From UHGV virus genome UHGV-0010228: 64,000 bases of DNA. One strand, written 5' to 3'. Under the pieces are notes generated by a model, which ran no database searches, was not told where the DNA came from, and saw only the letters and a program-made list of their open reading frames with translations. How positions within the stretch are numbered: the stretch's first letter is position 1; every line of letters starts with the position of its first letter. Shown piece after piece: positions 1 to 40,848 of the stretch. This DNA is from a virus. The position numbers were made by a program, and so were the translations under genes.

Positions 1-726
1 TTCATGGGAATCTGTATCATATTGTAAAATTATAAATCCTTTAGGCTCTTCTTCTCCAAAAACCCATCTATCAAAAGATCCTGTATATAACAATGGGTTT
101 TCAAAATACATTGTATGCCAATGTCCAGCGATCATTGGACCTTTGATTAATGAACTAAAAGTACCATAACTAAATATAACATTCCTATTATGTGATTCAT
201 TTGAATGCTGAACCACAATATCTGGCAATACAATATCAAAACTACCATGAAAGAACCCTATATCTGGAATGCTCATTATATTCTTCATATACTTCTTCAT
301 ATATTCGTCAGTTGCAATTAATTCATCTGGACAATACATACATTTCATATTAGGCAGAGTTTCTTCTATTGTATTTTCAGTAAATATTTTATAATAACTA
401 TCGTCATCTTCATATACTCTAAAAGCTTCTAATTGGTTATTGTCGTGCTCATGGGTTCCTTTAACAACTCTAATTTTCTTTATATTATTTTCTTTACAGC
501 AATTTACCAATTCATCCATCCATTGCAAAGCAAATAGTGCTGATTTAGAATTTAGAGTTAATTTATAATCAAAATAATCTCCACAGATAACAACCATATC
601 GAGATTATTCTTCATCTCTCTAATAGTATCTAATACTATACTTAGATTTGAGTAGAGAGTTTTAGCTTCAACTGCTCCCCAGTGTATATCTGAAATTACT
701 AACATATTATATTTCATAATATTCAT
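1..726 (-). CDS. SbcD/Mre11-family metallophosphoesterase nuclease, N-terminal portion (gene continues past window start)
   Basis: Minus-strand translation from ATG at 717 or 726 (AGGAG upstream) reads MKYNMLVISDIHWG...GDYFD...GTHEHD...GHWH. These are the calcineurin-like phosphoesterase motifs I-IV of Mre11/SbcD. There is no stop before position 1. Confidence 0.6.
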   Translation of the reverse strand, partial: MNIMKYNMLVISDIHWGAVEAKTLYSNLSIVLDTIREMKNNLDMVVICGDYFDYKLTLNSKSALFALQWMDELVNCCKENNIKKIRVVKGTHEHDNNQLEAFRVYEDDDSYYKIFTENTIEETLPNMKCMYCPDELIATDEYMKKYMKNIMSIPDIGFFHGSFDIVLPDIVVQHSNESHNRNVIFSYGTFSSLIKGPMIAGHWHTMYFENPLLYTGSFDRWVFGEEEPKGFIILQYDTDSHE

Positions 727-814
727 ATCTCCTTTATCAAATAAATAATATATCAATTTCTGATTTTTATGAATAATATCAGAAAAATGATATATTATAT
801 CGATGAATACATAT

Positions 815-822
815 GTATAATT
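815..822 (+). promoter_or_regulatory. Extended -10-like TGTATAAT box upstream of gene 845
   Basis: tgtataat sits 22 nt upstream of the GGAGG RBS and TTG start. A host sigma-A-type -10 is possible. No clear -35. Confidence 0.25.
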
Positions 823-844
823 TAATGTTTGGAGGTTAGTTAAA

Positions 845-1510
845 TTGCATTTATACGAAAAAGACGGGAAAAAATATCCATCAGTAACAACAATTGTACA
901 TTCTTTAGGAAGTGATGATATTGTCAAATGGTCAAATTTCTTAGGATTTAAGCATATTAAAGTACAAACTGAATTAGATAGAACTGCATCATTCGGAACA
1001 TTAGTTCATTCACATTTACAACATATCGTTGATCCTTCGTGTACTGATGAATTGATAGAACCAAAAAATTCTATTGAAAAATATGATCTTGATAAAGTTA
1101 TTAAAATATTTAATGATTATTTCAAAAATTTTAAATATGAAACTTTATTTACTGAAAGATTTATATTATCTGAAGAATTAGGATATGCAGGTACAATGGA
1201 TTGGGTTGCTAATGTAAATGGTAAAATAATGCTAAATGATTTTAAAACTGCCAAAGCCCCATATGTATCAATGATGTTTCAATTAGGTGGCTATTATAAT
1301 TTATTACAATCAATAGGTCAAGATGTCGATCTAGCATCTATTATAACAATAAATACATCTGGATGTAGAATGCACCCAATACATAAAGAAGATTTAATAT
1401 TTTATGCTAATGTATTTAATAGTCTTGCTAAATTTTATATATCAACGGAATTATACAATAATCCTAAACCTAAAATAGATTATGATATAATATCATCATT
1501 GCAGGAGTAA
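845..1510 (+). CDS. PD-(D/E)XK-like nuclease (RecB/Cas4/YqaJ-type fold suspected)
   Basis: 221-aa ORF with TTG start and GGAGG RBS. Motifs GTMDW...LNDFKTAK (D...D/E-x-K) and QLGGYY resemble PD-(D/E)XK recombination exonucleases. It lies adjacent to the Mre11-like gene. Confidence 0.45.
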   Translation: MHLYEKDGKKYPSVTTIVHSLGSDDIVKWSNFLGFKHIKVQTELDRTASFGTLVHSHLQHIVDPSCTDELIEPKNSIEKYDLDKVIKIFNDYFKNFKYETLFTERFILSEELGYAGTMDWVANVNGKIMLNDFKTAKAPYVSMMFQLGGYYNLLQSIGQDVDLASIITINTSGCRMHPIHKEDLIFYANVFNSLAKFYISTELYNNPKPKIDYDIISSLQE

Positions 1511-1515
1511 TTCAT

Positions 1516-1887
1516 ATGAACATAATAAATTATTTAACACAAAAACGTGATAAAAAAATTCAACGTGAAGTTGAATTGGAAAAACAAATGATTGATGAAT
1601 ATATATACTTAAGAAAGAATAAATTGCCAATGCCTAGGAGTAAACTAGGAATGCGAACAGATATAGTTGCTAAATACTTTAAATTATTACCATATACATC
1701 AGCATATACTTCAAATTCATTATCTCATGATGATATTTATATGGAATATTATACTGTAGAGAATGAAGCTAGAGTTGGCAGTAAAATGGGTAATCCTAAT
1801 ATAGCAATTCTAAATGATATATTAGACAAAGATAGAGTATTTCAACGGGTATATGATAAGATCGTTTATAAGAAAATTCATTTATAA
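1516..1887 (+). CDS. hypothetical protein (123 aa)
   Basis: ORF translationally coupled to the previous gene. AGGAG lies just upstream. Confidence 0.6.
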   Translation: MNIINYLTQKRDKKIQREVELEKQMIDEYIYLRKNKLPMPRSKLGMRTDIVAKYFKLLPYTSAYTSNSLSHDDIYMEYYTVENEARVGSKMGNPNIAILNDILDKDRVFQRVYDKIVYKKIHL

Positions 1888-1957
1888 AAAGAATAGTTCT
1901 GAAACTATTCTTTTTTTAACAATTATGTAAATTCTAGAGAAAGCGAGGGATATATTT

Positions 1958-2959
1958 ATGAGGCACTATACAAATAGTGATATTTTTCAATATATTAATC
2001 GTGGTAATAACTTCCAATCGGATGTTGCTAATACGGTAAGAGCTATAAATCCTTCAATCATTATAAATGATATGATTAAATCTTCAATTGCTGATTTAAC
2101 CAAGACAAGTAAAGAGGGCGTATTAGTTAAGGTTATAGATGCTATTAATAAACACGACTTATTATTAATTAATCCTCCTATAGAAGTAAGATTACCAGAA
2201 TATGCACCATTTATAAAGGCTAAATTTAAAGGTAAAGTATGTGTAATAATTGATGTTAGTAGATACACTTCACCTATATTAAATTCAAAAGATGAATTAG
2301 CTGGTTATAAAGTTGATATTAATAAGCTTTATAACTTAATTATTCCTGCATATATTGCTTTAAAATTCTATGTACCGAACTCATTATTACCAGCCGAAAC
2401 AGCTAAAGGATTAGCTAAGGTATGGGCAAGAATGTTTTGTAATGTATTGATGAGTAATGCTATTGGCATATTACAGAATCATAGTGAAAGATTAGAAGCA
2501 TTTATGTATTTTGCATTTAAATTCTTCTTAATATATTACTTAGAGGAACCTGCTAATCTGGTTGATAAGTTGGCAGAATCTACACTTGAAAATGGAAAAT
2601 CTCAGTATATATTAATAATAGAGGATAAATGCAAATCTCTTGGTATTAATATGTATGAGGATTTTGGTACTTTATGCCGAACTTTATTTAATAACGATAT
2701 TACAAATATTAAAGGTGCCATAGCTAAAGTTAACGATATGAACCAATCAGAACTTATAAATGCGTATATTCGTCAGTATGGTACTAATGCAATTATGTCA
2801 TTATGTGCAGTAGAATATTTTACTTGGACTATATTTGCAGCATATAATAAATGCAACATAATGAAAGACCGTGGTCTTGAAAATGTATTATATGGCAGGC
2901 GTGGAGAATATAAACGAGAAGTTCCAAAATTATTCGATTCGATATATAAAGAATTATAA
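1958..2959 (+). CDS. hypothetical protein (333 aa)
   Basis: Long ORF with GAGGGA RBS, followed by a terminator. Confidence 0.65.
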   Translation: MRHYTNSDIFQYINRGNNFQSDVANTVRAINPSIIINDMIKSSIADLTKTSKEGVLVKVIDAINKHDLLLINPPIEVRLPEYAPFIKAKFKGKVCVIIDVSRYTSPILNSKDELAGYKVDINKLYNLIIPAYIALKFYVPNSLLPAETAKGLAKVWARMFCNVLMSNAIGILQNHSERLEAFMYFAFKFFLIYYLEEPANLVDKLAESTLENGKSQYILIIEDKCKSLGINMYEDFGTLCRTLFNNDITNIKGAIAKVNDMNQSELINAYIRQYGTNAIMSLCAVEYFTWTIFAAYNKCNIMKDRGLENVLYGRRGEYKREVPKLFDSIYKEL

Positions 2960-3006
2960 AAAAAAAAAAAAAATAAAACCCGGAGACAATGTCTCCGGGT
3001 TTTTAC
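2958..3006. terminator. Bidirectional rho-independent terminator
   Basis: A21 run, then cccggagac-aat-gtctccggg hairpin, then TTTTT. Confidence 0.75.
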
Positions 3007-3007
3007 T

Positions 3008-3400
3008 CTACTTAACCTCTAAACATATATCGAGTCCTTTGAACTCGATTTTGTTCGAAGCTATTTTTGGATCTTCGGATGATGAGGATCCAATTGCCCA
3101 ATTAGTGATCTCACCTCTATGCCACAGAGGTGAAAATATGTCTGCAGGAGCGGATGCTCCTACTTCCCAATATTCCAGAATAGTTAAGATTCTGGAATAT
3201 AGAAGTTTTTCAACAGCCGTTGCACGGCTGTTGTCGTTTGATGGTTCTGAATTCGCCATCAGATTTTTAAAGAGGAGATATGCTCCTCTTTTATCTTCTA
3301 CAATCAAATTTAACTGGGCAGATAAATCTGTCCAGTTATTGAAGGCGTTCATAGTCTCCAGAATATCGAATAATTCTGTAAATGGTTTAAAATTTCTCAT
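3008..3400 (-). CDS. 130-aa ORF of uncertain reality (overlaps the hairpin array; may be non-coding)
   Basis: Has GGAGG RBS, the conserved promoter motif upstream and a terminator downstream, so the locus is transcribed. However the same interval also carries a 189-aa ORF on the + strand, and nine strong hairpins lie inside it. Confidence 0.35.
   Translation of the reverse strand: MRNFKPFTELFDILETMNAFNNWTDLSAQLNLIVEDKRGAYLLFKNLMANSEPSNDNSRATAVEKLLYSRILTILEYWEVGASAPADIFSPLWHRGEITNWAIGSSSSEDPKIASNKIEFKGLDICLEVK
3029..3378. other. Array of nine consecutive stem-loops (candidate structured ncRNA)
   Basis: Hairpin coordinates (stem/stem): 3029-3035/3043-3049; ggatc 3069-3073/gatcc 3087-3091; tcacctct 3111-3118/agaggtga 3126-3133; aggagc 3146-3151/gctcct 3156-3161; ttccagaat 3173-3181/attctggaa 3189-3197; caacagccg 3211-3219/cggctgttg 3225-3233; aaagaggag 3269-3277/ctcctcttt 3283-3291; aactgggcagat 3312-3323/atctgtccagtt 3326-3337 (one G-U); cagaat 3359-3364/attctg 3373-3378. 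The region is GC-elevated. Confidence 0.55.
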
Positions 3401-3432
3401 AGTAATATTCCTCCTATATTATTTATACTATG

Positions 3433-3449
3433 TACTATAATTTCACTTT
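3433..3449 (-). promoter_or_regulatory. Conserved promoter-like motif (minus-strand ATATATTATTAAAGTGA) for the 3008..3400 locus
   Basis: One of at least 11 copies of the same 17-mer. A TATAAATA-like box and GGAGG follow it. Confidence 0.5.
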
Positions 3450-3466
3450 AATAATATATCAATGAA

Positions 3467-3502
3467 AAATAAAGATATTACGGTATATTCTATATATAGA
3501 AT
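3467..3502 (-). terminator. Terminator hairpin attacggtatattctata|tatagaatataccgtaat (repeat copy 1)
   Basis: 36-nt perfect palindrome downstream of gene 3532..4008. An identical copy lies at about 48056..48091. Confidence 0.6.
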
Positions 3503-3531
3503 ATACCGTAATTAATATAATGAAATTATAG

Positions 3532-4008
3532 TTAATTATTAGTTATAATTTCATATATCATGTCATCATGATAAGTCCCATACTTATCTCTCACAGCATC
3601 TTTGAGGACATGTTTGTTCCCGCCATATTTAGTCATGATTCTATCATAACCTTTACATGCTGGATTTCCACCAATCGCTCTCCATTCGATTCTATGGAAA
3701 CGATTAATGAGTTCATCTATCTTGCGATAGACATCACGTCCAACAATTATATTTCCTCTATCAAAAGAAATATACCCGAATCGAGATACATTTGATGAAT
3801 AATAATCAACAAAGTACTCTAAATACCCAATCAATTCTTTGGCTGAATTGATTATTGCAAATTGATAGTTGCCTTTATTTGGTTCATCATTTATTATTAT
3901 AGGTGAATTATATAATCCTCCCATATAATAAAAGAACTCATCAGTATAAAAATACTCTAGGCTTCTTTTATATATTTCCTCTTTATACAATATCGCTGGT
4001 ACTAACAT
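3532..4008 (-). CDS. hypothetical protein (158 aa)
   Basis: ORF with GGAGG RBS, the promoter motif upstream and a terminator downstream. Confidence 0.6.
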   Translation of the reverse strand: MLVPAILYKEEIYKRSLEYFYTDEFFYYMGGLYNSPIIINDEPNKGNYQFAIINSAKELIGYLEYFVDYYSSNVSRFGYISFDRGNIIVGRDVYRKIDELINRFHRIEWRAIGGNPACKGYDRIMTKYGGNKHVLKDAVRDKYGTYHDDMIYEIITNN

Positions 4009-4051
4009 AGTATTATTATTCCTCCTTATTATGTAAACTAGATGTATTTAT

Positions 4052-4068
4052 TCATTTTAATAATATAT
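4052..4068 (-). promoter_or_regulatory. Conserved promoter-like motif copy (AATATATTATTAAAATGA, followed by ATAAATACAT)
   Basis: Same motif with the same spacing to GGAGG and ATG as the other copies. Confidence 0.5.
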
Positions 4069-4081
4069 TAATAAAAAAAAA

Positions 4082-4110
4082 GATATTACGGATAATTTCT
4101 CCGTAATATC
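4082..4110 (-). terminator. Terminator hairpin gatattacgga...tccgtaatatc
   Basis: Downstream of gene 4121..4849. Shares the ATTACGG stem base with the 3467 and 48056 hairpins. Confidence 0.55.
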
Positions 4111-4120
4111 TTTAATTTAT

Positions 4121-4849
4121 TTACTCCATTTTCCCAGCGAAAACTAAAATGTCTAATACTTCATTATTATAAACATACCCAGCACACCTACAGCAATAAC
4201 GTGAATTATTTAATAATAAATGAATTGGATTGATTTTACCAGAACATTTAAATATATCTGAGATATGAAGTGTTCCACTCATAACACATAAATAACTCTT
4301 TGCCGTCTTAATTAACGAATAGGCATATCTTTTCGTTCGTTTTCCATCGAGGCTATTGAAGCCCCTGCACCTTGTTAAATCTATAGATATAACTGATATT
4401 AATGTTTTTACCATCTTAGCATATACCAATTTGAATTTTGCATCAATAATCGGTGAACGACGACCAATATCTTGATATTCATATTTAAGTGTTGCATAGT
4501 GATAAGTAAATGTCCAATGATAAATCATATATTCAGGTGTCGTAGCCGGAATTTGTATGCTTCGAAATTTGTTTGTCATTTTACGACACTTTCTTGGTTC
4601 ATCGAGTTTTGATTCGAACTCGTTTAAATCGTGTAATATATCTGCAAGTTTAATTGGAATCACACCACCAGCATCATTCATAGCTTTATCAAACTTTTCT
4701 TCTAAAGTTGGTATAACCTTAAGAAATGCCGTTTCCAAATTGTATTTTGGAGAGTCATCAGTCGTCTTATCTTCCTCTTTTTCATCATTAACTAACTGCG
4801 TTTCATCCTTTAACTGTAAATCACCCTTTAAAATATCTTCTTCTCTCAT
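4121..4849 (-). CDS. hypothetical protein (242 aa)
   Basis: ORF with GGAGG RBS. Confidence 0.65.
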   Translation of the reverse strand: MREEDILKGDLQLKDETQLVNDEKEEDKTTDDSPKYNLETAFLKVIPTLEEKFDKAMNDAGGVIPIKLADILHDLNEFESKLDEPRKCRKMTNKFRSIQIPATTPEYMIYHWTFTYHYATLKYEYQDIGRRSPIIDAKFKLVYAKMVKTLISVISIDLTRCRGFNSLDGKRTKRYAYSLIKTAKSYLCVMSGTLHISDIFKCSGKINPIHLLLNNSRYCCRCAGYVYNNEVLDILVFAGKME

Positions 4850-4891
4850 AATAATTTATCCTCCTTATTATGTAAATTAAATGTATTTATT

Positions 4892-4908
4892 CACCATAAT
4901 AATATATT
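4892..4908 (-). promoter_or_regulatory. Conserved promoter-like motif copy
   Basis: Minus strand reads ATATATTATTATGGTGAATAAATACAT...GGAGG. Confidence 0.5.
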
Positions 4909-4920
4909 TTTATAAAAAAA

Positions 4921-4952
4921 TTTAGAATATCGCAATATTGCGATATTCTAAA
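4921..4952 (-). terminator. Terminator: perfect palindrome tttagaatatcgcaatattgcgatattctaaa
   Basis: Follows gene 4971..5357 on the minus strand and is followed by a T-run on that strand. This ends the nrdD operon. Confidence 0.6.
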
Positions 4953-4970
4953 TTTCTATAACTTGATTTT

Positions 4971-5357
4971 TTATCGTCTTTCTGATAAATAATTAACTAT
5001 TGAATCATAAAATTGATCAACATCAATTATCTCAGATTTATAATTATCAATCCGCCTTACGAAACCAAATATTATAGTTGCTTCTTTGCGGAACCTTTTA
5101 AAATATATCGATGGATTGGTTGCATATGGATTTATCACATTATTCATCCCTATACGTATGTATTTTCTGCATCTCTCAATACAATCATATATTCTAGTTG
5201 CAATAGCTGTAATAGGGATATTTAATGGTGTTCTATTACATTCTAAATGTATAGCAATTTTAAATCTCTCTTTAAGAATGTTTTCATAAAGATTACTAAG
5301 TTTAATATTAATATCAAATTTAGTCATTCCATTATTAACCATCCATTTTCTATACAT
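4971..5357 (-). CDS. hypothetical protein (128 aa)
   Basis: ORF with GAGGAGG RBS. Confidence 0.6.
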   Translation of the reverse strand: MYRKWMVNNGMTKFDINIKLSNLYENILKERFKIAIHLECNRTPLNIPITAIATRIYDCIERCRKYIRIGMNNVINPYATNPSIYFKRFRKEATIIFGFVRRIDNYKSEIIDVDQFYDSIVNYLSERR

Positions 5358-5772: not shown

Positions 5773-5840
5773 TTAAAGATGTAGAACTCGAGAATTTATT
5801 TCTTTGGTCTTACCCTCATTCCAGAAATTGCTTCCAAGAT
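5773..5840 (-). CDS. nrdD: Anaerobic ribonucleoside-triphosphate reductase NrdD, exon 2 (C-terminal 22 aa)
   Basis: Minus strand reads at|ctt gga agc aat ttc tgg aat gag ggt aag ... cat ctt taa. Joined to exon 1 it gives ...RRTCG-Y-LGSNFWNEGKTKEINSRVLHL*. A G (omega-G) precedes exon 2. Confidence 0.8.
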
Positions 5841-6156
5841 CTTTTATACCCTCGGTTTCCCGATATTTTAGTAGGGGAATAGACTATACAATACTATTTC
5901 TGATTATTTTTATGACAAAATCGACCTTTAGAATCTCGTGCCTTAAAACACAGAAATAGTTCTCTATTATAGTCGTTGAACGTCCATCCTATATTTCTAT
6001 AGATGTTTCGCTGCGTTTGATTACCCAATCCTTAATGATTTTACCATACCGATTCCGTTACTAATCGCCACTATCTATATCACTATGATAGCTTGGTTAT
6101 TAAGGCTCTAAGGGACTCCCCGCAGTTTAAGAGATTTAACGTGGACTATCTCGTTA
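5841..6156 (-). ncRNA. Group I self-splicing intron in nrdD (316 nt, no ORF)
   Basis: Internal guide GUCCAC (complement of + 6141-6146) pairs with exon end GUGGAU, with a terminal U-G. P-like element AACUGCGGGGAG, R element GUUCAACGACUA and S-like element UAUAGUCUA are present. The segment is GC-elevated and ORF-free. Confidence 0.8.
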
Positions 6157-8248
6157 ATCCACACGTGCGGCGTACCACTGTAAGTTTAGTATGATCACGA
6201 CATCCGCAATTAGGGCATTCCCAGTCTCCATCTTTTATGACTATCTCACCATCAAATCCGCAATTACCACAGTAATCGGATTTGGTGTTAAATTCTCCAT
6301 ATAATATATGATCGTATATGAACTTAATTAAAGCTTCTACTGCAGATAAATTATTTTTCATATTAGGTATTTCTACATATGAAATACAACCACCTGTACT
6401 TATATTCTGATATGGAGCTTCAAATTCAAATTTACTAAATGCATCTATTTCTTCTCTAACATCAATATGATAAGAATTTGTATAATACCCTTTATCGGTG
6501 ATATCTTTTATATCACCGAACTTTTCTTTATCTATTTTTGCAAATCTATAGCATAAAGATTCAGATGGTGTACCATATAATGCATATCCTAAATTCTCTT
6601 CTTTATTCCATTCTACAACTTTATCTTTCATATACTGTAAAACTTTAAGGGTAAATTCTTTTCCTTCTTTACTAGTATGTGATTTACCTAACATTGCTAT
6701 TGATAATTCATATACACCGATATAACCCAGAGATAATGTTGAATATCCACCAACTAATAAATCATCAATAGTATCTTCTGCATTCAACCTAGCTAATGCA
6801 CCATACATCCAATGTATAGGTGATGACTTAGCTTTAGTACCTCTGAGTGCTTTATATCTCAAATATAATGCTCTATGGCATAATTCAAGTCGTTCATCAA
6901 ATAACTTCCAGAATTTATCCATATCACCATTAGCAATTATACCTATCTGTGGTAAGTTAATACTTACTACACCCTTATTAAATCTACCTTCAAATTTATA
7001 ATTTCCATTTTCATCTTTCCATGGTGATAGTGCAGATCTACATCCCATAGGTGAGAACACATTTCCTTCATAATTCTGTCTCATTATCTTAGCACTGATA
7101 TAGTCCGGATACATTCTCTTAGCTGTACATTTAGCCGCTAAGTGTGTGAGATAATCATATTTACCACCTGTAAGATTATTATGCTCATCAAGCACATAGA
7201 TAAGCTTAGGAAATGCTGGTGTTATATATACACCATATTCATTCTTAATACCCTGATACCGCTGATTAAGAATAGCTTCAATTATCTGTGCAACTTCTTC
7301 AATATATGGATCATCTGGTTTAAGATTTAAGAAAATTGTAATAAATGGTGATTGACCATTTGTAGTCATTAATGAATTTAACTGATAATCAATAACCTGG
7401 ACTCCAGCTTTTAATTCTTTATCAACCATATCATCAACTATAGACTTTATAGTTTCTTCATCAATTTTACCATGTGATGATTCTCGAATTTGCTTATCAA
7501 ATTTCTCTCTTGATTTTCTAAGATACTTTCCCAAGTGTCTAATATCTACAGACTGACCACCATATTGTGAAGATGCAACTGCAGCAATTATCTGAGTCAT
7601 AATGGTACACGCAACTCTAAATGATTTAGGACTTTCAATCATCTTACCATTCATTACAGTACCATTATCAAGCATATCTCCTATATTTATGAGACAGCAG
7701 TTGATTATTGGTTGTAGAAAATAATCTGCATCATGGAAATGAATGATACCATCTTCATGAGCTTTTACAATATCTTTAGGTAATAAAAGTCTCTTAGTTA
7801 AATCTTTAGAAACTTCACCTGCTATTAAATCTCTCTGAGTAGAGGCTAAATATGCATCTTTATTTGAGTTTTCTTCCATAACATATTTATTATTATATCT
7901 AACTAATGATAATATCGACTCATCTGTTGTATTCTGCTCACGAACTAAATTTCTAGAATATCTATACGTAATATATTCTTTAGCAACAGGATATTCTTCA
8001 TTTACTTCATATCTAAGAATATTATTGATTACCTGCTCTTGAATATATTCAACATCAGCAATAAATTCAGGATCATCTGCAAGATAGGAATCAATATTAG
8101 CTTCTACATTAGAAGCTATTCTCTGAATTAATTTTTCGCTAAATCTAGCATTTTCAGGAACCTGTAAATTTGCTTTACCAATAGCGCTTGCTATCTTTTC
8201 TTTGTTGAAATCAACAATCTGACCATTTCTTTTACGAACTTTAATCAT
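6157..8248 (-). CDS. nrdD: Anaerobic ribonucleoside-triphosphate reductase NrdD, exon 1
   Basis: About 697 codons with a C-terminal Zn ribbon (CGNCG...CPNCGC). The sequence ...VVRRTCG runs into the intron. The annotated ORF's 'LTR*' tail is intron read-through. GGAAGGAGAA RBS. Confidence 0.85.
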
Positions 8249-13085: not shown

Positions 13086-13125
13086 AATAATAAGGATAGA
13101 TGTTTATAAACATCTATCCTTATTA

Positions 13126-13494
13126 TTATATTTTAATGACCCATCTACCCTCTATATTAAATACTACTGCACGAGAAATAAAAATTCCCCATGATGTCGA
13201 ATCTGCTGATTCATCCATACTACTCATCCAATCATTTTTTATCTGATCAAGTGCTTCAAATCTTGAGCCTGTTTCTATATTCGTATCATAGAATGATGAT
13301 TGATATAAATCAGGTTCATTTTTTAATTCATAATTAGAATTACAAAATTGATTAATTTTAGATACTACATAATCGTAATTATGATGTATTGGGTAAATCG
13401 GGGATACTTCCTTACTACAATCAATTCCATACTTAGGTTTTTCTAATAATATATCCTCAATTAACTCAGTGGGCTTAGCATTTAATTTCATCAT
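13126..13494 (-). CDS. hypothetical protein (122 aa)
   Basis: AAGGAGG RBS. The start overlaps the stop of the upstream gene (ATGA). Confidence 0.6.
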   Translation of the reverse strand: MMKLNAKPTELIEDILLEKPKYGIDCSKEVSPIYPIHHNYDYVVSKINQFCNSNYELKNEPDLYQSSFYDTNIETGSRFEALDQIKNDWMSSMDESADSTSWGIFISRAVVFNIEGRWVIKI

Positions 13495-15716: not shown

Positions 15717-18700
15717 TTATAATGTAGCTATTTTATTATACATTGAATTTAGATTAGGATTCTTTAATGATTTTGCACTTTTTGCTCTACTTCCAGTAGA
15801 AATATTATTTGTCTTATTACCACCAATAATTGTAGTGTTACCACTATTTGTAATGTTAGTTGGACTAGAATTCTTACTGTCACCATACCACTTGTCAATA
15901 GTATTAGCAATAGTATCGAGTCTAGATTCAACTCCATCATTATTAGCATTAATAAATGTATTCTTATTAATAAATCCACCATTTTCAGAATTGCCTCCGA
16001 AGTATGGAGCATCTGGGTTTATATTATATCTCTTTGCCATATTAACATTTGCTATATTTAACTTCTTATTATAATCAGGCCCTAAACCTACTAAGCTATA
16101 TGATGCAGGATTGATCCATGACCCGTTTTTCTTTACACCATAATGTAAGTGGTTACCTGTAGACTTGCCAGTAGATCCAACAAGACCAACTTTAGCACCC
16201 TTAGCAACTCTAGCGCCCTTAGACACTAAGCGCTTACTCTGATGAGCGAAGTAATGTTGAGTTCCCTTACTATCTGTTACTACAACAAGATTACCAAATC
16301 CACCAGTACTACCAGGAGATTCCGATCTAGTAACAGTACCCGATACAGGTGTATAGATTGGAGTTCCAGCTGGTGCTGCAAAATCTATACCATTATGCAT
16401 CTTACGTTTACCGCTCTGTGGATCTGATCTATATCCGAATGGACTTGAAATTCTCGTGTACTTCAATGTTTTCTGAATGGCTTCTTTAGCATTATTACCA
16501 ACTACATTAACTGATGAACCAACTGAAGAGCCAGATAAAGAAGAAGATGATGACTTAGATGTAGTATTAGTGTTTGATGATTTTCCAGATGAGTATTTAG
16601 AATTTATCCAATCCCATAAATCTCCCATCTTTGATGCTTTCATTGCATTTCCAACACCTTCTGCATATCCACTTATCATTTCACCCCACGTGGAGTTACC
16701 ATATCCAATCGGAAGATCAATATCTCCCCAGCCATAGATATTTTTTCCACCAACAGAATCGTATTGTCCTAAATTATAATTTACATATAACCGCTTTAAT
16801 TTATTTTCATAATCAATTTTTGCCATCGGGATATTATTTGGATAATCATACGTTGATGTGCAGTATCCAGCATTAGCAACTGCGTGCATTGCATCATATG
16901 CTGTAGTTGCAGTTCTAGCACCACTATATAACTTACCCGAAAGCACATCCCAATATCTAACTACACTATCACCAATGGTATTATATTTAGCCAACTTACC
17001 TTTTGGCATTACACCAAACATATTATTACTACTGAGAGCTCCACCGGCTGATCCTAAGCTTGTTTCTTGAATCGCTTGCGCCAGCGTTAATGAAGGTGGT
17101 AATGATGTTGATCTGGCGTTATCTTGAGCAAATTTTGCAAGAATATTTAATCTTTCACTTAATGATTTCTTTGCCCACTGTCTTCCACTAACATTTAATT
17201 CAGCCGGTATAGTAATTGAAGATCCGTTAAAATCTACAATTCCCGTACTACCTAAGGTTTTACCATCTTCAGCAGTTTCATAGTCTGATGATACATCACT
17301 TTCCAATTCAGAAGCAATTGCTTCCCATGGATCTGTACCATTCACATATGCTGTCATATATGAACTAATAGCACCCGCAAGTCGCTTTAATTTTGTGAAA
17401 AGATTCTCGCCTTTTAACGAACCTAAAAAGTTCATAACTCCTTCTCTAGTATGCTCTAATAAGCCGGAAGCTAAAGATTCATCAGTTGCTGCAATACTAG
17501 ACATATCAACTCCGTTTACATAGTATTCAGAATTATCAACTCTTTCTTGCATATCTTTAATTTTTGAAGATGATAATCCCCAGTTTACGTAAATATATGA
17601 CAATCTAGTTCTCTCGTGCTGTTTTATTACACTTTTAGACTTATATGTAACATTTGTACCTGTTTCAGTTTCACCATCTTTAATTACTATCGAATATTTA
17701 TTATATTTTTTATTTATTGGAATTTCGACATATCTCCAATAATCTCTTAAAGTATAATATTTATCCCTATCTGCTGATTGCATTACTGTATCTACAAGTC
17801 TTCTTAATTCAGCATCAGTAATTTTAGATACTGGAACGTTTTTCTTTCCAATAGTAGCAACATTACATACATCTGTAGATTTATTAAAATAATCAATTTT
17901 TGTTATTGTAGTATCATTCGATCCAGTCGAACTTTTCCACTTTTTATATACATATTCATAGATATATCTAGTTCTAAAAATATTATCACCATAAGTATTA
18001 ACTTTCTTTCTCCAACTTAATGCTTCATATTTTTTATATCCTTCTACAATATATTTATCATATAACTTAAAATCGGATTTTTTGTAAGATAATATTAATG
18101 AATATAGCGCAGTATTTCCAATACCTGCTAAATCTTTAGTTTGTTCAGGGACTGGTGGAATAGATTTCTTAATTGCACAGAATTTATATGGATCCGCTAA
18201 ATACTTATTTTCAATATCTCTTGAAGTCAGCTTCGTTTTATTTGCTGCATTATATAATTTTGATGGTGCCGGCGGATTATAATTTGTAGTTGTTTTAGCT
18301 TCATTTTTCTTTGCAGTTGTAATATCTTTAACCAATTTTGATTTATTGGATAGCTTATTAAGGGTTGATGATATCAGTCCATACCCAAATGGTATATCAT
18401 ATGCAGTCTTTTTTGTTTTATACATATCTGGAATATTGATATTACCATAACCATATGACCATCCACCAGTTGCATTGTTGATGACTGATGATGCTGAATA
18501 ACTCTTAGTCTTACCATCCATTGGATCTTTGATAATGATATTACCATTTGAATCCATACCTGATGCTACAACTATATGACCAGCTGATGTGAATGGATCA
18601 TTTGTATGATCTCCTCTACCGGCTACTATTGTAGGTACTCCAGATTTTATATTTGTATATAATTCGGATCCTCTAGTTACTTGATGAGGCTTTAATCCCA

Positions 18701-21700
18701 TTTCTGCAGCACCTTTGGTGAATAATGCTGCATTAGCCCCGCCCTGAGTAATATATCCATTAGCAGCTGCCATTTTACCAATGTCTCCAGGTGAAATCAT
18801 TTTACCATTAATATCATTTGCAATCATTGCTAATGATGTAGGTCCACATCCACCGTTTGCCATAGTAGATGGCTGTCCATTTGGTAATGTGCCTAATGGA
18901 ATACTTGACCACTGAGCATTTTTCTGAGATAATGCCTGACCATATCCAAAACCAACAGGTCCTCTGCCAAAACCAGCATTATTTATATTTGAAGATTTAT
19001 TTCTATTATTAGATGTATTAGTAGATGCTCCACTTCTAATAGTACCTCCACTAACATCATTCGTTATATAATCATCATTATAATCAGTCATAGTATAGCC
19101 ACTGTATGCACCAGCAGGTTTACCATAACCTAAAGCTTTATTCATAGATATGATTGGATGTCGAATCACACTCCATACACGTTTTATTACACTTCTATTT
19201 GCTATAGTGTCACTATATTCATCTAATGTTAAATCATCACCATTTTCTGCATTATATTGAGCAGCTTCTTCTTCAAATCTTTTCTGAGCTTCATCAAGAT
19301 TAAGAGCAAACTGATCATTGAATAACCCAGATAATTTATCATATAAGAACGATGCAAATTCACATTTAAGATCACATCCTTTAAATGCACCTACAACTTC
19401 TAATGTTAAGTCTATTACAATACCTACACTAATACCCATAAGGCATTTCATTACTGATGATATGAATCTCATTAATAAATCAACATCATTTGCATTTACT
19501 TTGAATAAATTAGCAGCTTCAAAGAATCCAGTTGCTAAATCGTATACACCGAATAATATTCCTATCGGAGAAGTAGTTATTCCGGCCTTAGCTATCTGAG
19601 TTCCTAATAAAGTTGCATATTTCATATATATTCTATCTTCTGATAATATAAATGTTAACTTATCTTTGAGCCATGAACTAATAGCAGATATTGTTTTAGC
19701 AATAACTGTCTTTTGTCCACTCTTATCTTTCATTATTTTACCTAATACTTTTAGTACAACCTTATTCTTTGCAATTGCACTTATTCCTTTTTCTACTAAT
19801 CCAAATGCTTTTCTAATAAGACCTTTTCTACTTTCTTTAACTGCATCACTAGCTCCTGTTTCAACAACGCTCTGTGTTGATTTCTTAAGAATATCTTTTT
19901 CAAAATCAGTTGTTGCTTCACCTGCAGCAGCCTTTGCAGTTGCTTCAGCAATAGCACCAGCTTCGGACTTTGACATAGTAAATCCAAGATCAAGGGCTGT
20001 ATCTTTAATAATGTTTCTTCTAGCAATATCCACAATTGATTTGCTTACAGATTCTGATGCATATTTTTCAAGTACTCCTAATCTTTCTTCAACTGGAAGA
20101 TACTTTAATACTTCTTCTAATAATTCTTCAGGTGCTTTATGAACACTAAGGCCTTTAGCAACCATAGCTCCAGCACCACTTTTAACATTACCAGCAGCAC
20201 TTTCAGCAGATATTCCTTTGAGAATATCATATGCTTGCTTATCATCTATATTTGAAACTAATACTTTATTGACTTCGTCTAATGTCTTATCAGATATATT
20301 ATTTAATGCGCCATTCTGTAATACCCTAGCTCCAATATCAGATGCACGTCCACTTCTAAGACCTGTAGAAGATACTATAGTATTTATACTTGATCCTGCT
20401 ACTGATCTAGCAACTGAACTCGTAGCTTTAATAGCGGCATCGCCTAATGCGGCACCTCTAGCTCCACCATATAATGCCCCTGTAACTGGCGAAATTCCTC
20501 CTGGCATTAATCCAAAAGCTCCACCAACCGTAGCACCCAGGACTGCACCGGCACCCTTATATAGCAATTTTCCAGTTCTACCACCACGAGCAGCATTAAT
20601 AGCACCTCTAACAAATCCATTTAATCCTATTCTTTGTGCATCAGTATGCTCAGCATATGTTGCATTTCCATCTTCATCAATACCTATAGCATCTTGATCT
20701 CTAGTATATGAAATAGTACCATCTTCATCAACATCAATAACATTATTACCATTAGCTTGCAAGCCTTGAATCATTGATGCTCTTTGCTCTTTGCTCATGT
20801 GAGCAGTTGATAATGTGTATACTTCAGTTGTATCAGTTTTAAACTTCCATCCTGGGACTAGTTTACCAACAGTAACATTCCATAATGCTTTAAGAACTGA
20901 TCCTGCTATAGTTGGAATTACAGAAATAAATGCATTCATCATTGGTTCTGCTAATGTATTAAACATGACCTTTATAACATCAGCAATATAATGAGCATTC
21001 TTTCCTATATTTTCAAATACTTTAGTTATTGATGGGAATATGTATTGATTCCAATACATTGGGAAGTTTTCTGAGAACTTATTAATACCATTACCAATAG
21101 ATGTTAATCCATGCTCTAATGTTGGTAATACATATTGATCCCAAATTGCTCCACGCTCAATGAAATTAGAGAATTCCTGAGTCTTAGCTTCAAGTCTAGC
21201 CTGGAAACCAGGTCTTATAATTTCAGCTATACCTATAGTTATACCTGCTACAGTGTATGCAGGAATAATTTTCTTAACACCAGCAACTACTAATTTAGCA
21301 GGAAGGGTATTGCCAACCGCACCTAATACACTTCCAGATACTCCTAAAATCTTTCCAAGAGCTTTTCTAATTATAGATGTATCATTTTCAGTTGGTTTTT
21401 CTTCTTCTTCATTAGTTTTAGCAGCAGATGTTGCACCTATAGTTGCAACTGAAGTTGCACCTTTACGAACTTCCTCAGTATCTTCATCTTTTCTATTAAG
21501 AGCAAAAAAGCTCTTAATATTATTTTTCATATTTTGAACATTCTCATTTTCTGTTATTTTATATTTATCCATTATACGTTTACCGAAACGCTTTAATGGA
21601 TTTCCTTTTGACGTACTCTTTCTCTTCTTTCTAACATCATCACCAGTAATATCACCATCTGTATTGATTTCAACATCAACTGCAGCAGCATCAGCAATAT

Positions 21701-24700
21701 CCTGATTAATTTTATTAGCTTCTTTCTGAAGATTTTCATTTTCTTTAGCAAGATTTATCTGTTCTTCCTGAAGCTTATGATTTAATCCTGCTAATTCATT
21801 TGTCTCTCTGAATAAATCAATTATCTTCTGTAAGTAAGATGACTTAGCGTCGTCATTATCTTTAATCTTAGATTCTACAAAATCTGCTAAACCATTAATA
21901 CCTTCAGGACCTAATCCCTTATCAATTTTACCAGATTTCTTAACTCTCTTAAGATTTTCAATAACGCTAGCATTAGATGCATCTTCTGATGTTCTACCAC
22001 CAAATGTGAATCCTGAAAGATCTACATCTCCTGCATACGCAGCTTTAATTAATTTATCAAGGAATATATCTTTATTAATACCTACTCTAGAATACATCGC
22101 ATCATCATTAAATCCAACATTCATTCTCGTAGCTTTTCTGCGTATATCTCCATATTTTCTAACATATTCTTCACGCATAGCTTCATATTTATTCTTGTCA
22201 GCTTCAAACTGATTCTTCTTTGAATTATATCTAAATCTCTTTTTCTCATTCTCATCTTTACGCTTTCTCTGCTTTACAAAATCTCTAAAATTACCAGTAG
22301 CAAAATATCCTGATTCTCTATATTCGTTAAATAAATCATCATCTAAGATATCTGCACTAAGATTACCAATATCTTCGATACCCATACCACTAGTATCTAT
22401 TCCATGTCTCTTTAACTTCTTTAATATTCTATCTGCATATTCAGTTCTATCAGCTTCACTAGTAAATTCATTTATTTTAAGATGGCTATTTAAAGCCTTC
22501 CCAGCAAAGAAATCTCTTATTGACTGGAGATAATCTTCTACTGCTGTCTGATAGCGCATAGTGCGTTCTCTTGCAGCTTTTTCTTCTGGGCTTTCCTGAA
22601 CTTTAACACCATCACGCATTATCTGCTCTTCAAGTGTGCCATTCTTTACAGCCTTAGACCATTCTCCACGTCTATAAAGTAAATCCATAATATCATCAGA
22701 TGTTTGTAATCTATTCAGATACTTATCATCTTTCATACCTGCTTTACGGAACATCTCACGATATCTCTTCACCTGTTCATCTGTTAAATCTACTTCTCTA
22801 CCACCAAGATCTTTAATTGTGATATTTTCTCTGATCTTATTGACCTTTTTCCACATCTTATTTTCTTTCTTGGCAGCTTTAGCTTTTGCATTTAGATCAT
22901 CTAAATCATTATCTGCTGTCATCCAATCAAATGCATTTCTACCAAGATCTGACATTTGATCAGCCCATCCTTCTTTTGCAGCTCTAGCTATATCACCTTT
23001 ACCTCTAATAGCTTGGAATATATCTACAGCTTTTCCTAATCCTGTTCTGCTATTACCAGCTTCACGTTCAGTTCTCCACTTACCCATGAGCATAGTAGCA
23101 ATATTTCTACGATATTCTTTTCTATAATCACCCATAGCATCTTTACGTTTACCACGAGTCAATAACTCTAAACCACGAAGACCTATAGAAACCGGAGCAA
23201 CTGCACCATAGATTCCTAATGACGCCGTTTTAGTTACAGCTTTAGTGATAAGCTTAGTTAATGACGCTACTGGACCAAATATTCTATGAAGGGCACCTTC
23301 AATAATAGTCTTAGCACCATCACCTATTTTTTCAATAACCGCTTTTATATTGTCTACAATATTATCTTTAACTTCTTTTATACTATCAACTATTGGACCA
23401 AATGCTTTTCTAAATGGTATTGTAATATTTTTTCTAATGGTATTTAAAGTTCCCATTACATGTTCTTTTGCAGGTCCTATGATATTATCAATTATAGTAA
23501 CCTTCATAACATTAGCCATTCGTCTTAAAAGACCATTAGTTTTTCTACCTATTACATTACCATTTTCATCAACTTGCTCTGTACCAAATAAGTATTCATT
23601 AAATTTCTTACTTGCAGAACTCATTCCGATTACCATACCAGCAATACCCATACCAATAGGTCCACCAGCAGATAATGCTGCAGGAATAAATCCCATATGA
23701 GACATCGTAGTAGCAGTTAATGCACCAATAGCAAAACCTTTTATTCCCTTACCGATCATAGGGAATAATTTGCCGAGTCTTTCTTTAGATTTATTCCAAT
23801 GATTTGATAACCAAGTTCCGCTGCGTTTTCCATCAGCACCTTTTTCACCAAATAACATTGATTGGAAAGACTCATTATTCTTTAATATACCTAATGCCGC
23901 ACCTAATAACGCACCACCAATTACACCAGAAGGTAATAATGCAGATGTTAACACTCCACCAGCACCAAACTGAGATACTGTCGAAGGCAATACTATTGAT
24001 TTTATAACACCTAATGTTGCACCACCAATTGCAAATGGTAAAGCTTTCTTAAATGATGCTTGCATCTTTTTAGTGAATATACCACCATGACGCTCACCAT
24101 TATCATCCATCTTACCAAACATTACAGACTGGAATGCTTCGGTGTGACTAAGAATTGATAGACCAGCCGCAGCGATAGCTCCACCTAATACAGTGTGAGG
24201 TAAAAATGCAAGACCGGTTAATCCTAAATTTTGTCTAGTTGCTAATAATCCGAAAATACCACCAGCTATTGCAGCTGCAGCTGCTTTAGGAGCAATCTTC
24301 TTTGCAGATTCTTTAAATTTTTCAAAGATATTCTGAGTAACTTTCTTTTTCTTAGTACTATCATTACTACCTTTTATATCTTCAGCAACATCTTCTGCTG
24401 CATCTTCAATTTTTTCTGCACCATTATATATCGTTAACGCAAATTGATCTTTTGCTGACTCGATCATATCCGCGGAATTATCAACTCCAACTGTGAATCT
24501 TTTCTTAGCACCTATAAGTTTCTTTCCAGTGAATCGTTTATAGTTACGCTTAGGGCCTTCTAATAATTTTGTCTCAGTAGCATTTATATATTTCTTATCT
24601 TCTACATCATCTGTAAGATTACTAGTAATATTTACTGTAGATTTTCTATCTCCTGGCTTTCTGAGTTTCCTCTTAAGAGATTCTTTTGTAACCCCTTCAG

Positions 24701-27680: not shown

Positions 27681-27764
27681 ATTAAATTCACCACCTTTCA
27701 GCTATAGATTAAATTTAGCCTAAACTTTTATCGGTCTGTTTTTATAGGTTAATTTAGGGAATTA

Positions 27765-27805
27765 AATAAAATAGATAGTTTATATAAACTATCTATTTTA
27801 TTTAG
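27765..27805 (-). terminator. Terminator hairpin for gene 27809..28216
   Basis: aaataaaatagatagtttata / tataaactatctattttattt inverted repeat. Confidence 0.5.
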
Positions 27806-36003: not shown

Positions 36004-39000
36004 ATGCTATTCGAAAATTATGAAGATTGGAGAGTATATCCACCACAACCGAGGATATATTTCCCTAAAAATTCTTCAAAAAATAAAACTGCAGGATATG
36101 GATCAGCGTTATTTTTATTAACCCCCAAAACTACATCATCTTTCGAATTTATGAAAGATAAAAATGTAGCACTCAGAATGTCTTTATATAAATACTATAT
36201 GATAGAGACGATGTATAAAGAAAAAATTGGTCGAAAAAATGTCATATTAAATATGACTAGACAGATGGAAGCTTTATATAATGAAAATAATGTTGAAAAA
36301 GATACTACAATATCTTATATTCCTAGACCTCAGAAAAAAGCTAGATTAAAATCTGGTAATAATATAATTGTAGATTTATCAATGTGGATGGAATTATATC
36401 TTAAATATACAGTAACTATTCAGAATCCTAAGGAAAAGTGTAGAATATTTATAGATTTATTAGATAAATTGCTTAATGATAGTAATTATAATAATTATGA
36501 AAAATTAGTATGCATAGATATAAATTCATGGACTAATAGAGCGGCAGATTGTGTTATGATGAATCGCGATCTACTCAATAACCCTCTATCAATTTTAATT
36601 TATGCTATGGTTAAATATCCGGATTTATTAAATGGAAAACTTAAAAACTTTAGAATATATCTCGTAAATAGATCTAGTAAGCAGATTTTTCTCTTTAATA
36701 CAAAAGATATTATTAAAGATAATTATAACAAATTTAAGAGTAAGATCAAATTATTCAAGGGTATATCTATATCATCTTCTGAAACTCTTGAGGGCGATAC
36801 CAATATATCAGAAGGTGAAGCCAAGGCTATCGCTATCAATAATTATAAAAATAAAGTATTAAAGTCAATGAAGAGTAATCTCTTAGGTAACAGTAAGAAT
36901 ACTGAAATTCGAGAAATTACTGACGATGATGAATTGATTGATAGTAATGATGATTATGATGAGATCTTCGATGTTACTAAAGAAATAGAAGAAGAATCTG
37001 ATGAAGTAAAACCAACCGATGAAGATTCTAATCTTTTTGATGAAATGGGAGCAGAGTTAGATCTTGATGCTGAAGCTTTGGCTGAATTAGATAATATGAT
37101 TGGTGATATTGATGATGTATCAACTGATGATATATTGAATACTCCAGTAGATGAAGTTGCAGATGATCTTGCTGAACGTGTTAAAAATAATGTATTCATT
37201 GCGGAATTTAAACCTAAGAGGACAAGTGAGCAAGAAGAGCGAAATCGTGAAATGATGGATATTCAGGCAATAGCTCTTAATCAGGAAAATATTGATAATG
37301 CAAAAACCAAGATAATTGATACAACAGATTTTTCAGACTATATCAATTCTTCCAATGTAAATATTCTTAAATCAAAATATGTTAATTTTGATAAAGACTA
37401 TGTTGAAAAGAAAATGGAAGGTGACATAGACAATGCTGTTGCTTGCTTATCTGGAGCGACAGATAAGATATTCATCACCAATAAAGAAGTTATTGATTCT
37501 TCAGACTCTTTAAATCTTAAGAGGACTTTAAAATATTCCCTTGAAGATGAAAAAGGTAATAAAATGACAATAACTTTTGATGTACCTATTATAATTGATA
37601 ACTGCTATATCTATGTAAATGGTAGTAAGAAGTTGATAGGTCATCAGTTTATATTAAAACCTCTAGTAAAAACTGGTCCTGATACTGTTCAGTTAGTAAC
37701 TTCATATAATAAAGTATTTATCACTAGAGATGGCGTTGTAGATTATATATCTTCTAGCATTATAACTTATATGGAGAAGAATCCAGAGAAGTTTAAGTGT
37801 GTTAGGGGTAATTCATCAATTAAGAATAAGAAATATAACACAGCATTAGATTTTACAATGTATGCTAAGTTATTTACTAGATTTACAATTGGTGATGAAG
37901 AATTTATTACCGGCATTGAAGAATTTTATGATAGATACAATAAAAAATATCCAACTAAAAAACTTAAGTTGGATAAAAAGAAAATTGCTGAGAAGTATCC
38001 AATTTCATTTAATAAAAAGACTGGTGAAATAAGATATATGAAATCAACTGAAAGTTTTTCGGATATCTTATTATCAATCATTGATGAAGAAGATAAGAAA
38101 GCAATTAGTAGAATTAAAAAGAAACCTAGACTGGTTTATGTTAGGGCTAAATTAATGGGCCAAATATTCCCAATGGCTCTTCTTTTAATGTATCATGAAG
38201 GATTCGCGTCTATAATGAAACGTGCAGATATTGCTTATCAATTCACAGATAAGAAGTCATATAATAAAATGGATAAAATGAGATATGATTTCTTAGAACT
38301 ATCGGATGGATTAGTCGTCTGGGAACGTAGAAATATGTTAACTTCATTACTCATGAATGGCTTAAAGCGATTAGATTTTACACCTTATACAATAGAAGAG
38401 TTAGAATCTAAGGATACTTATAGGTCATTATTAGTCGACTTATATAATGGGGATAATTCTATTTCATATAAAATAGATCAGTTCTATGATTTTACAATAG
38501 ATTCTATTACTAAGGAGATATTAGAGGATATGAATTATCCTACAAATCTTCCTGATTTATTAATATTAGCAGTTAAGATGTTATGTGATAGCGCATATGC
38601 TCTTGAAAATAATATGAATAATATGAGAATTAGAAGTAATGAGGTAATTCCAGCGATTATTCATAAAGAAATAGCAGATGCATATAACTTATATAGAAAG
38701 ACATCTTATAAGAAGAAACCAGTTAATGTATCTATTAAACCAAATATCATAATTGATAAATTACTATCTGCTGATACCAATCTCATCGAGGAATTTAGTA
38801 CTATAAATCCTGTATTAGAGATAGAAAAAGCTCGTTGTGTAACATTTAAAGGCTATAGAGGTATACAGTTAGATAGAGCGATAACTCTTCCTAGACGTGG
38901 ATATGATCCATCAATGTTAGGAATTATGGGAATTTCAACATCATCAGATGCTAACTGTGGTGTAAATAGACAGATGACATTAGAACCTGCGATTACATCT

Positions 39001-39128
39001 ACAAGAGGATACTTGGAGGTAAATGGTGTTGAAAATGTAAATTCTTTAACAGATGCTAATTTACTATCGCCAGCAGAATTATTAACACCACTCGGTGTTA
39101 TACATGATGACCCCGATAGAACTGCGAT
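36004..39128 (+). CDS. Multisubunit RNA polymerase beta-like subunit, exon 1
   Basis: AGGAGGTG RBS. C-terminal part aligns by eye with bacterial RpoB: ...LDRAITLPRRGYDPSMLG... (compare RERAGFEVRDVHPTHYGR), RGYLEV (YGFLETPYR), LTPLGVIHDDPDRTA ([14 protein letters not shown]). The exon ends ...gcg at| and the 'IKKSLLDVAV*' tail is intron read-through. Confidence 0.75.
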
Positions 39129-40724: not shown

Positions 40725-40736
40725 ATAAACAAATTA

Positions 40737-40772
40737 TGAATATAAGATATTGTCTAATATCTTATATTCATA
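40737..40772 (+). terminator. Terminator hairpin after the RNAP gene
   Basis: tgaatataagatatt-gtcta-atatcttatattca. Confidence 0.55.
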
Positions 40773-40848
40773 ATTCTATATAAATTTTATGAATATATTA
40801 TTTTGATGATAATATTATATTTCTTAAACAGTGAAAGGAGAATTAAAA

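Follow-up and report, generated by a model that had tools for sequence, protein, structure and literature searches.

The question raised by positions 3008-3400 of UHGV virus genome UHGV-0010228 is how a dense array of near-perfect hairpins comes to lie within what reads as a small gene. The whole analysed stretch, one strand of 64,000 nucleotides (nt), is referred to as the window. The locus is occupied on the minus strand by a gene of 130 amino acids (aa), which belongs to an orphan, fast-evolving family and carries the array. The original prediction, made from the sequence, had taken the interval for a structured non-coding RNA masquerading as open reading frames (ORFs); its third alternative, an extremely structured mRNA encoding the 130-aa protein, fits the data. 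The reading favoured here, with a probability of roughly 0.5, is that template switching makes and homogenises the palindromes in an accessory gene under weak constraint and rapid exchange, with a highly structured mRNA as the consequence.

An inverted-repeat scan identified 10 short-loop hairpins between 3029 and 3378, one more than previously counted, with stems of 6-13 bp that are mostly perfect; the stems quoted earlier are all present. The hairpins are listed on the minus strand and designated H1 to H10. Five alleles of the gene were compared, of which three are close (window, L001 and L003) and two distant (L005 and L006). H1 (3359-3378) has 6 bp and an 8-nt loop and is present in the window and L003 only. 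H2 (3311-3338) has 13 bp with one mismatch and is kept in 5/5 alleles. H3 (3269-3291) has 9 bp, H4 (3239-3261) has 6 bp and an 11-nt loop, and H5 (3211-3233) has 10 bp and a 3-nt loop. H6 (3163-3205) comprises a perfect 12-bp core (3170-3200) plus an outer extension. H7 (3146-3161; 6 bp, 4-nt loop) is absent in L005 and L006. H8 (3111-3133) forms 8 perfect pairs, or 11 with one mismatch, and 10-12 bp with one G-U on the sense strand. H9 (3067-3093; 10 bp with one mismatch, 7 + 2 bp) is specific to the window. H10 (3029-3049) has 7 Watson-Crick pairs, or 9 bp including wobble pairs on the sense strand. It is enclosed by an outer helix at approximately 3016-3060 and is paired in 96% of cells over the five alleles.

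When the hairpins of the locus were compared, no common sequence motif was found among their stems and loops. The loops are not stable RNA tetraloops, and the loop sequence follows the codons. Mimicry of anticodon loops or CRISPR repeats was ruled out on the grounds that loops and stems lack a common motif. A restriction-site decoy was also rejected (approximately ten 6-bp palindromes in 511 nt, against our own rough expectation of approximately eight). The stems at 3111-3133, 3146-3161 and 3269-3291 hold Shine-Dalgarno (SD)-like purine runs (AGAGGTGA, AGGAGC and AAAGAGGAG) paired with anti-Shine-Dalgarno-like CCUC runs; every internal SD-like sequence of the 130-aa ORF therefore sits in a hairpin, which may be a by-product.

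The array is real and far beyond chance. The minus strand of 3008-3400 (393 nt) folds at -135.4 kcal/mol, against -82.3 +/- 5.0 for dinucleotide shuffles (z = -10.6), and the plus strand at -136.6 kcal/mol (z = -8.8). Shuffling of synonymous codons with the protein kept gave z = -7.6 for the window allele. Among the 140 coding segments of the window, the 130-aa ORF came first under local folding (span of 45 nt or less). When the entire window was folded in a sliding, GC-corrected scan, the locus was the strongest or near-strongest outlier, and its residual after GC regression was the largest in the window. Chance pairing was modelled by permuting bases inside 300-nt blocks of the window, which preserves composition. 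Approximately 69 perfect stems of at least 7 bp are then expected per 64 kb (approximately 0.3 per 300 nt), and 6 of at least 9 bp; the earlier estimate of 0.1 per 300 nt was thus correct to within an order of magnitude. Window positions 1-3506 recur with 100% identity in an independent assembly (L008), so the locus is not an assembly artefact.

GC-richer sequence generally folds more stably, and the locus is a GC-richer patch (0.39, against approximately 0.27 around it) of an AT-rich genome. A composition artefact is nevertheless hardly credible. It is refuted by the shuffles, which gave z-scores of -7.6 to -10.8 with either dinucleotides or protein and codon usage preserved, and it leaves the size of the GC-regression residual to be explained. 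The GC excess is, moreover, confined to the stems, which have 45% GC in the window compared with 29% for unpaired positions (third codon positions, 40% and 28%). Overall, the ranges are 45-52% GC for stems (36-51% at third codon positions) and 26-29% for unpaired positions (21-28%).

Further members of the 130-aa family were sought in 5.8 billion clusters with a profile and in 1.8 billion representatives with an exhaustive hidden Markov model search. These recovered four other protein clusters with 58-84% identity, all syntenic, and one remote match (P0009, E = 9.5e-5). Scans of IMG/VR and JGI metagenomes gave no further alleles, and DNA copies from other samples were identical to known ones. 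The start, ribosome-binding site and stop are conserved in the five alleles, and indels remain in frame (130-136 aa). Third-position changes are abundant among the alleles, and dN/dS is 0.11-0.36 in all ten allele pairs where computable. By these sequence comparisons the 130-aa ORF is under purifying selection as a protein. Pfam, PHROG, NCBIfam and PDB profile searches with the protein gave nothing usable. AlphaFold on the five-sequence alignment reached a pLDDT of 45, too poor for a fold search.

A true non-coding RNA (a small RNA, decoy or protein-binding array with accidental ORFs) would account for the very strong folding and for some covariation, and would suit a product without a known protein family and with so low a pLDDT. 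The coding selection, in-frame indels and conserved ribosome-binding site and ATG leave this reading unsupported, and it is considered highly improbable. The Rfam scan that had been proposed as a check found no family at gathering score in the window; the best local match was an L20 leader (31 bits, against the 58.7 required) spanning the terminator. A tRNA scan found none, and a DNA search of phage records with 2000-5000 gave no match. The open frames on both strands (130 aa on minus, 189 aa on plus) do exist as described, and they lose their value as a sign of non-coding RNA, since the plus frame follows from amino-acid composition. Antisense stops in that phase arise from Tyr, His and Gln codons only, and then only in particular contexts. 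An overlapping antisense gene was rejected accordingly: the 189-aa frame stays open in 15-66% of synonymous shuffles and carries two stops in L006.

The locus had been correctly recognised as a self-contained transcription unit, with the promoter motif, the GGAGG and a bidirectional terminator all present. On the minus strand, the putative early promoter TATATTATTAAAGTGAA occupies 3442-3458. Within it, TATATTATTAAAGTG at 3444-3458 fits the consensus TATATTAT-(6N)-G and places the predicted start at G3444. Against an expectation of 3.7, the window holds 17 occurrences of the motif. Alignment of 11 upstream regions shows an unvarying core, and most of these regions have a T-run and terminator hairpin before the promoter and AGGAGG and ATG after it. 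The site at 3442-3458 matches the early consensus of the Bacillus jumbo phage AR9, AAATATATATTAT-(6N)-G+1, which was experimentally defined and is read by an injected virion RNA polymerase (PMC5312081). The 5' untranslated region (UTR; 3401-3444) is A/U-rich and unstructured, with AGGAGGA at 3409-3415, 8 nt ahead of the start codon ATG. In 5/5 alleles, no local hairpin (span of 45 nt or less) involves the opening 15-22 nt of the coding sequence.

Downstream, a bidirectional intrinsic terminator at 2975-3003 (13-bp stem with 7 GC pairs, A-run upstream, T-run downstream) serves both strands and is shared with the convergent 333-aa gene (1958-2959, plus strand). Its stem shows a compensatory G-C to A-U change in L005 and L006. 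Upstream, a perfect 36-bp palindrome at 3477-3512 (minus strand; 16-bp stem, 4-nt loop, then a T-rich tract) terminates the gene at 3532-4008 and forms the stem-loop half of a stem-loop-plus-early-promoter cassette. With its own promoter upstream and the bidirectional terminator downstream, the gene is taken to be a monocistronic early unit with an mRNA of approximately 470 nt; its early class and start site are predicted from the motif.

The window also encodes split RNA polymerase beta fragments (36004-39159 and 39537-40724; PHROG RNA polymerase beta families). By tblastn, their nearest relatives, at approximately 30% identity, are jumbo phages of Listeria (LPJP1), Staphylococcus (S6-like) and Yersinia (phiR1-37), the closest being Firmicute phages. 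Contigs with the 130-aa gene reach 224-257 kb and come from human-gut samples. The virus is an uncultivated human-gut jumbo phage of the AR9, Staphylococcus S6 and Listeria LPJP1 type, with its own multisubunit RNA polymerases.

Each of the five alleles folds better than its synonymous shuffles. The z-scores are extreme for the close alleles (-7.6, -8.9 and -8.2) and moderate for the distant ones (-3.0 and -4.6). It had been proposed that homologs conserving the protein but freely breaking the stems would speak against a structured RNA, and here the outcome was mixed. In the distant homologs (58-61% identity) about half of the stems are lost. H1, H7, H8 and H9 are mostly limited to the close group, and H2, H3, H5, H6 and H10 persist family-wide, kept or rebuilt by compensation. 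The local structure of the window leaves 81% of cells paired, compared with 38-45% for controls in which partners were displaced by one to three columns. Changes on both sides affect ten pairs, against 5.2 +/- 1.6 in shuffles (4/500 reach 10), for five sequences and a structure derived from one.

Individual hairpins illustrate this positional persistence with covariation. H2 changes from ACAG/CTGY to GACG/CGTC across alleles. H3 carries a compensatory A-U to G-C change in L001 and a G-C to U-A change in L006, and L005 and L006 have three covarying stem pairs in H6. In H8 of L003, two amino acids change (P to A and G to A) with the replacement of C-G by G-C. At the site of H5, L006 has an unrelated 9-bp stem in the same place. 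Slower synonymous evolution in the stems was not seen: among the alleles, synonymous change is as frequent inside stems as outside them. Equal rates together with retained pairing are the expectation for concerted change of both arms; simple purifying selection would slow the stems.

Loop inversion, multi-base compensatory change and stem extension are footprints of template switching during replication (PMC8794818). In-place inversions were found at three hairpins. The H5 loop reads GCA in both the window and L001 and TGC in L003; at the H6 loop, TTAAC of the window is matched by GTTAA in L003; and the centre of H9 is TCATC in the window and its exact reverse complement, GATGA, in L001 and L003. 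All three preserve loop length and are centred on the axis of the hairpin. L001 also has a flip of GTCC to GGAC in the 3' arm of H2, and the H7 loop (ATCC versus GAAT) is a near-inversion. Among the three close alleles there are 3 inversions, compared with 0 reverse-only and 0 complement-only controls. The 3 kb of flanking sequence, with pairwise differences that sum to 2,447, contained no inversion. The ratio to point changes is high (approximately 3 inversions among approximately 60 differences between close alleles). Template switching as the origin of these footprints is regarded as well supported rather than proven, because the inversion numbers are small.

The proposed course of events is as follows. 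Transcription would run from the virion-RNA-polymerase-type promoter TATATTAT-N6-G (approximately 3444) to the bidirectional terminator at 2975-3003 and yield the mRNA of approximately 470 nt. Intramolecular template switching in DNA replication would create, extend and perfect short-loop palindromes by quasi-palindrome correction and loop inversion, a single event copying one arm onto the other or flipping the loop. This would explain the perfect stems, the amino-acid-changing 'compensatory' double changes and the inverted loops. The array would have accumulated in a small, fast-evolving accessory gene that is exchanged as a cassette, with a stem-loop-plus-promoter unit on one side and a terminator on the other. 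The product would be an unusually structured mRNA with an open initiation region.

Exchange as a cassette is suggested by the distribution of divergence. Between the window and L003 there are 13-22 mismatches per 100 nt within approximately 2960-3457 and 0-1 across 3 kb of flanking genes; L005 and L006 show a similar hot-spot pattern. The dS between the window and L003 is 0.35 in the 130-aa gene and 0.03 in the adjacent 333-aa gene. The boundaries of the divergence are the terminator and the promoter. Neighbouring genes of 242 aa and 158 aa are variably present in L001 and L003. The segment 3442-3512 recurs almost identically at 48021-48091, and similar units lie upstream of 3532-4008 and 4121-4849. 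Judged from these alignments, exchange of old alleles would be no worse an explanation of the hot spot than local hypermutation.

The second copy of the cassette stands before another hairpin-dense gene, a GC-elevated early gene of 179 aa at 47442-47981 (minus strand). Its promoter (48021-48037) and stem-loop (48056-48091), also on the minus strand, are nearly identical to 3442-3512, the stem-loop being a copy of 3477-3512 with one mismatch. Three alleles of this gene, at 58-61% identity, gave z-scores of -5.0, -8.8 and -11.0 against synonymous shuffles. Several of its hairpins are positionally conserved, and 21 pairs are changed on both sides. The 130-aa and 179-aa genes are unrelated and yet share the promoter, the entire 5' UTR and the first codons (homologs L003, L009 and L011); the shared codons ATGAGAAATTTTAA specify MRNFK both in the 130-aa family and in L009. 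The sharing suggests recombination breakpoints just inside the coding sequence of the two genes.

A third hairpin-dense gene is the early ORF of 71 aa at 48579-48794 (minus strand), a predicted membrane protein with perfect stems of 9-14 bp within its coding sequence. It ranked second of the 140 segments (z = -6.3, from the window sequence alone). This ORF lies in a minus-strand run of tiny early ORFs at 48115-49135 (41, 53, 71, approximately 54 and approximately 47 aa), several with predicted transmembrane segments and most starting ATGAGAA (M-R). The related contig L009 lacks the block 48579-49135. Over all coding segments of the window the mean z is -1.3, with ten segments below -4, compared with a mean of -0.6 and none below -4 in a control of 42 kb taken from Listeria phage LPJP1. 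Among the hairpin-richer coding segments are the 5' segments (26493-27680, z of approximately -5) of a single 3,987-aa ORF at 15717-27680 (minus strand).

Palindromes are abundant across the window, which contains 66 perfect stems of at least 9 bp against the 6 expected. There are 30 stems of at least 12 bp, compared with 0.1 expected, reaching up to 20 bp without a mismatch. Intergenic terminator-like palindromes are unusually long (13086-13127, 27763-27804, 40732-40775, 50933-50976, 61945-61983 and others). The long perfect palindromes are consistent with active arm homogenisation across the window.

Several points weigh against the template-switching account. The evolutionary counts are all small, with five alleles, three of them close, and a tested structure taken from one sequence. 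The inversions number only three (two of 5 nt and one of 3 nt), and in more divergent comparisons the controls are as frequent as the 3-mer 'inversions'. The excess divergence could come wholly from recombination with old alleles, not from a raised local mutation rate. Template switching alone explains neither the GC-rich stems nor the hairpins in better-conserved protein segments. Hairpin density was considered as a trait of all early-promoter genes and rejected, several such genes having ordinary z-scores. With regard to a benefit at the RNA level, one-sided changes in orthologous stems leave G·U on the sense strand 23 times and A·C 17 times (p = 0.43). Antisense also folds as stably as sense for the window allele and for 2/3 alleles of the 179-aa gene.

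Some of these points are the strength of a rival in which the stems are a selected RNA element, kept by point mutation and selection with template switching incidental. The purposes proposed for such an element are to block RNases, to pace translation, to sequester internal AGGAG SD-like stretches or to evade type III or type VI CRISPR. Extreme z-scores in three allele lineages and in a second gene family accord with it, as do the GC enrichment of stems, synonymous sites included, and the open initiation region. The hairpins coincide with conserved protein segments; between the window and L005, amino-acid differences affect 30% of positions in stems and 51% outside (p = 0.02). One-sided changes in L001 are 8 G·U versus 1 A·C, and sense folds better than antisense in 4/5 alleles. 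Set against this are the lack of an overall strand asymmetry, synonymous sites in stems that are not slowed, loops that follow codons and are not stable tetraloops, and the dispensability of about half of the stems in L005 and L006. Axis-centred loop inversions and arm swaps are not predicted by point mutation plus selection. A selected RNA element is accordingly held to be possible, on the doubtful side.

A whole-window count of wobble pairs by strand was likewise not significant, and RNA-level and DNA-level selection are not separable by the counts of 23 G·U and 17 A·C. Within the template-switching account, the analysis leans towards retention of the GC-rich stems because local hairpins would shield A/U-rich early mRNA from single-strand-specific RNases. 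This lean rests on the GC enrichment of stems at synonymous sites, the open initiation region and the fact that hairpins are not restricted to variable protein segments.

Equal folding of both strands, together with the position of the gene at a convergent junction, raises the alternative of a role for the DNA itself: cruciform or hairpin protein sites, replication or recombination signals, or back-up terminators against read-through from the convergent plus-strand operon. The abundance of long perfect palindromes over the window, non-coding DNA included, points the same way. The stems, however, share no motif for a binding protein and turn over between alleles, and the 179-aa and 71-aa genes are equally hairpin-dense. 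Four plus-strand hairpins are followed by T-rich tails; 4 of approximately 10 compares with approximately 2.5 by our own estimate from plus-strand composition. Back-up terminators on the plus strand were rejected, the tails not being clearly above that expectation. A DNA-level role is considered unlikely.

A further idea, also improbable though somewhat less so, is that the palindrome array is a built-in diversification device, or that its structure shields the earliest mRNAs from RNA-targeting immunity or RNases. In the diversification version, GC-rich hairpins would promote loop flips and arm conversions that rewrite one to four codons while regenerating the hairpins. Local protein evolution would be faster in genes facing host defences, with no reverse transcriptase, which would make the device distinct from diversity-generating retroelements.

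Two other regions of the window were noted. The non-coding region 41930-42390 (15-18% GC) contains perfect palindromes of 12-18 bp (41952-41985, 42050-42089 and 42111-42138) and tandem-like TCTATATAAATAAA repeats, and is a candidate origin of replication or regulatory region. At 5841-6156 (minus strand) a GC-richer insertion of approximately 316 nt, absent in the close relatives L001 and L003, interrupts nrdD. The ORF at 6146-8248 has 700 aa, compared with 719 aa in relatives, and the last approximately 68 nt of coding sequence resume at approximately 5773-5840. A sub-threshold Rfam match at 5860-6197 to RF00028, the group I intron model, scored 28.9 bits (E = 1.9e-5). The insertion is probably a group I intron without an ORF, located in the gene for the anaerobic ribonucleotide reductase.

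The ingredients assembled here are each known, namely AR9-type early promoters, stem-loop-plus-promoter cassettes, template-switch hairpin maintenance and structured mRNAs. The literature searched contained no report of a coding sequence filled with hairpins that renew themselves and alter the protein when their loops flip, and none of such an early-gene class in a gut jumbo phage. If the pattern holds, the locus would be a clear natural case of hairpin-templated mutation shaping a protein-coding gene under purifying selection. For RNA-structure screens it would mean that extreme folding z-scores and covariation can arise by a mutational mechanism in coding sequence and are no proof of a functional RNA. 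Small early genes in exchangeable promoter/terminator cassettes of an unstudied gut jumbo-phage lineage would be good candidates for host takeover or anti-defence functions. The question is also raised whether structure helps early mRNAs to survive the first minutes of infection.

Among known systems, the CBASS-activating phage RNA (cabRNA) is a protein-coding transcript with secondary structure over most of its coding region. Other highly structured coding RNAs, such as RNA-phage genomes and type I toxin mRNAs (PMC6733600), are alike in that structure covers most of the coding region. Their folds are defined long-range or regulatory ones, whereas the hairpins described here are independent and short-looped, share no motif and turn over between alleles.

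The early units of AR9 (Lavysh et al. 2017, PMC5312081) resemble the present unit in the extended, AT-rich promoter TATATTAT with a start at a G after a 6-nt spacer, in the many small early genes with their own promoter and hairpin terminator, and in the split beta/beta' subunits; the word 'hairpin' itself was not found in that paper. They differ in that the present phage belongs to a distant gut lineage, its RNA polymerase beta being approximately 30% identical to that of known phages, and in that start and timing are here predicted. In T4-type phages, promoter-early stem-loop (PeSL) cassettes mediate modular shuffling (PMC2839356, PMC4122927). They too comprise a terminator stem-loop and early promoter between small variable ORFs, repeated at several loci, with gene presence, absence and replacement mapping to cassette boundaries. 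PeSL cassettes belong to T4-type phages, have a sigma-70-type early promoter and are intergenic, not hairpins within coding sequence. Because phage and promoter differ, the likeness is read as an analogue in architecture and not as homology.

A parallel in mechanism would be the template-switch hairpins of Mönttinen and Löytynoja (2022, PMC8794818), which share perfect stems, multi-base compensation, stem extension and axis-centred loop inversions with the array at 3029-3378. In that system the events are rare and occur in RNA genes, whereas here they fall in a protein-coding gene and alter its amino acids.

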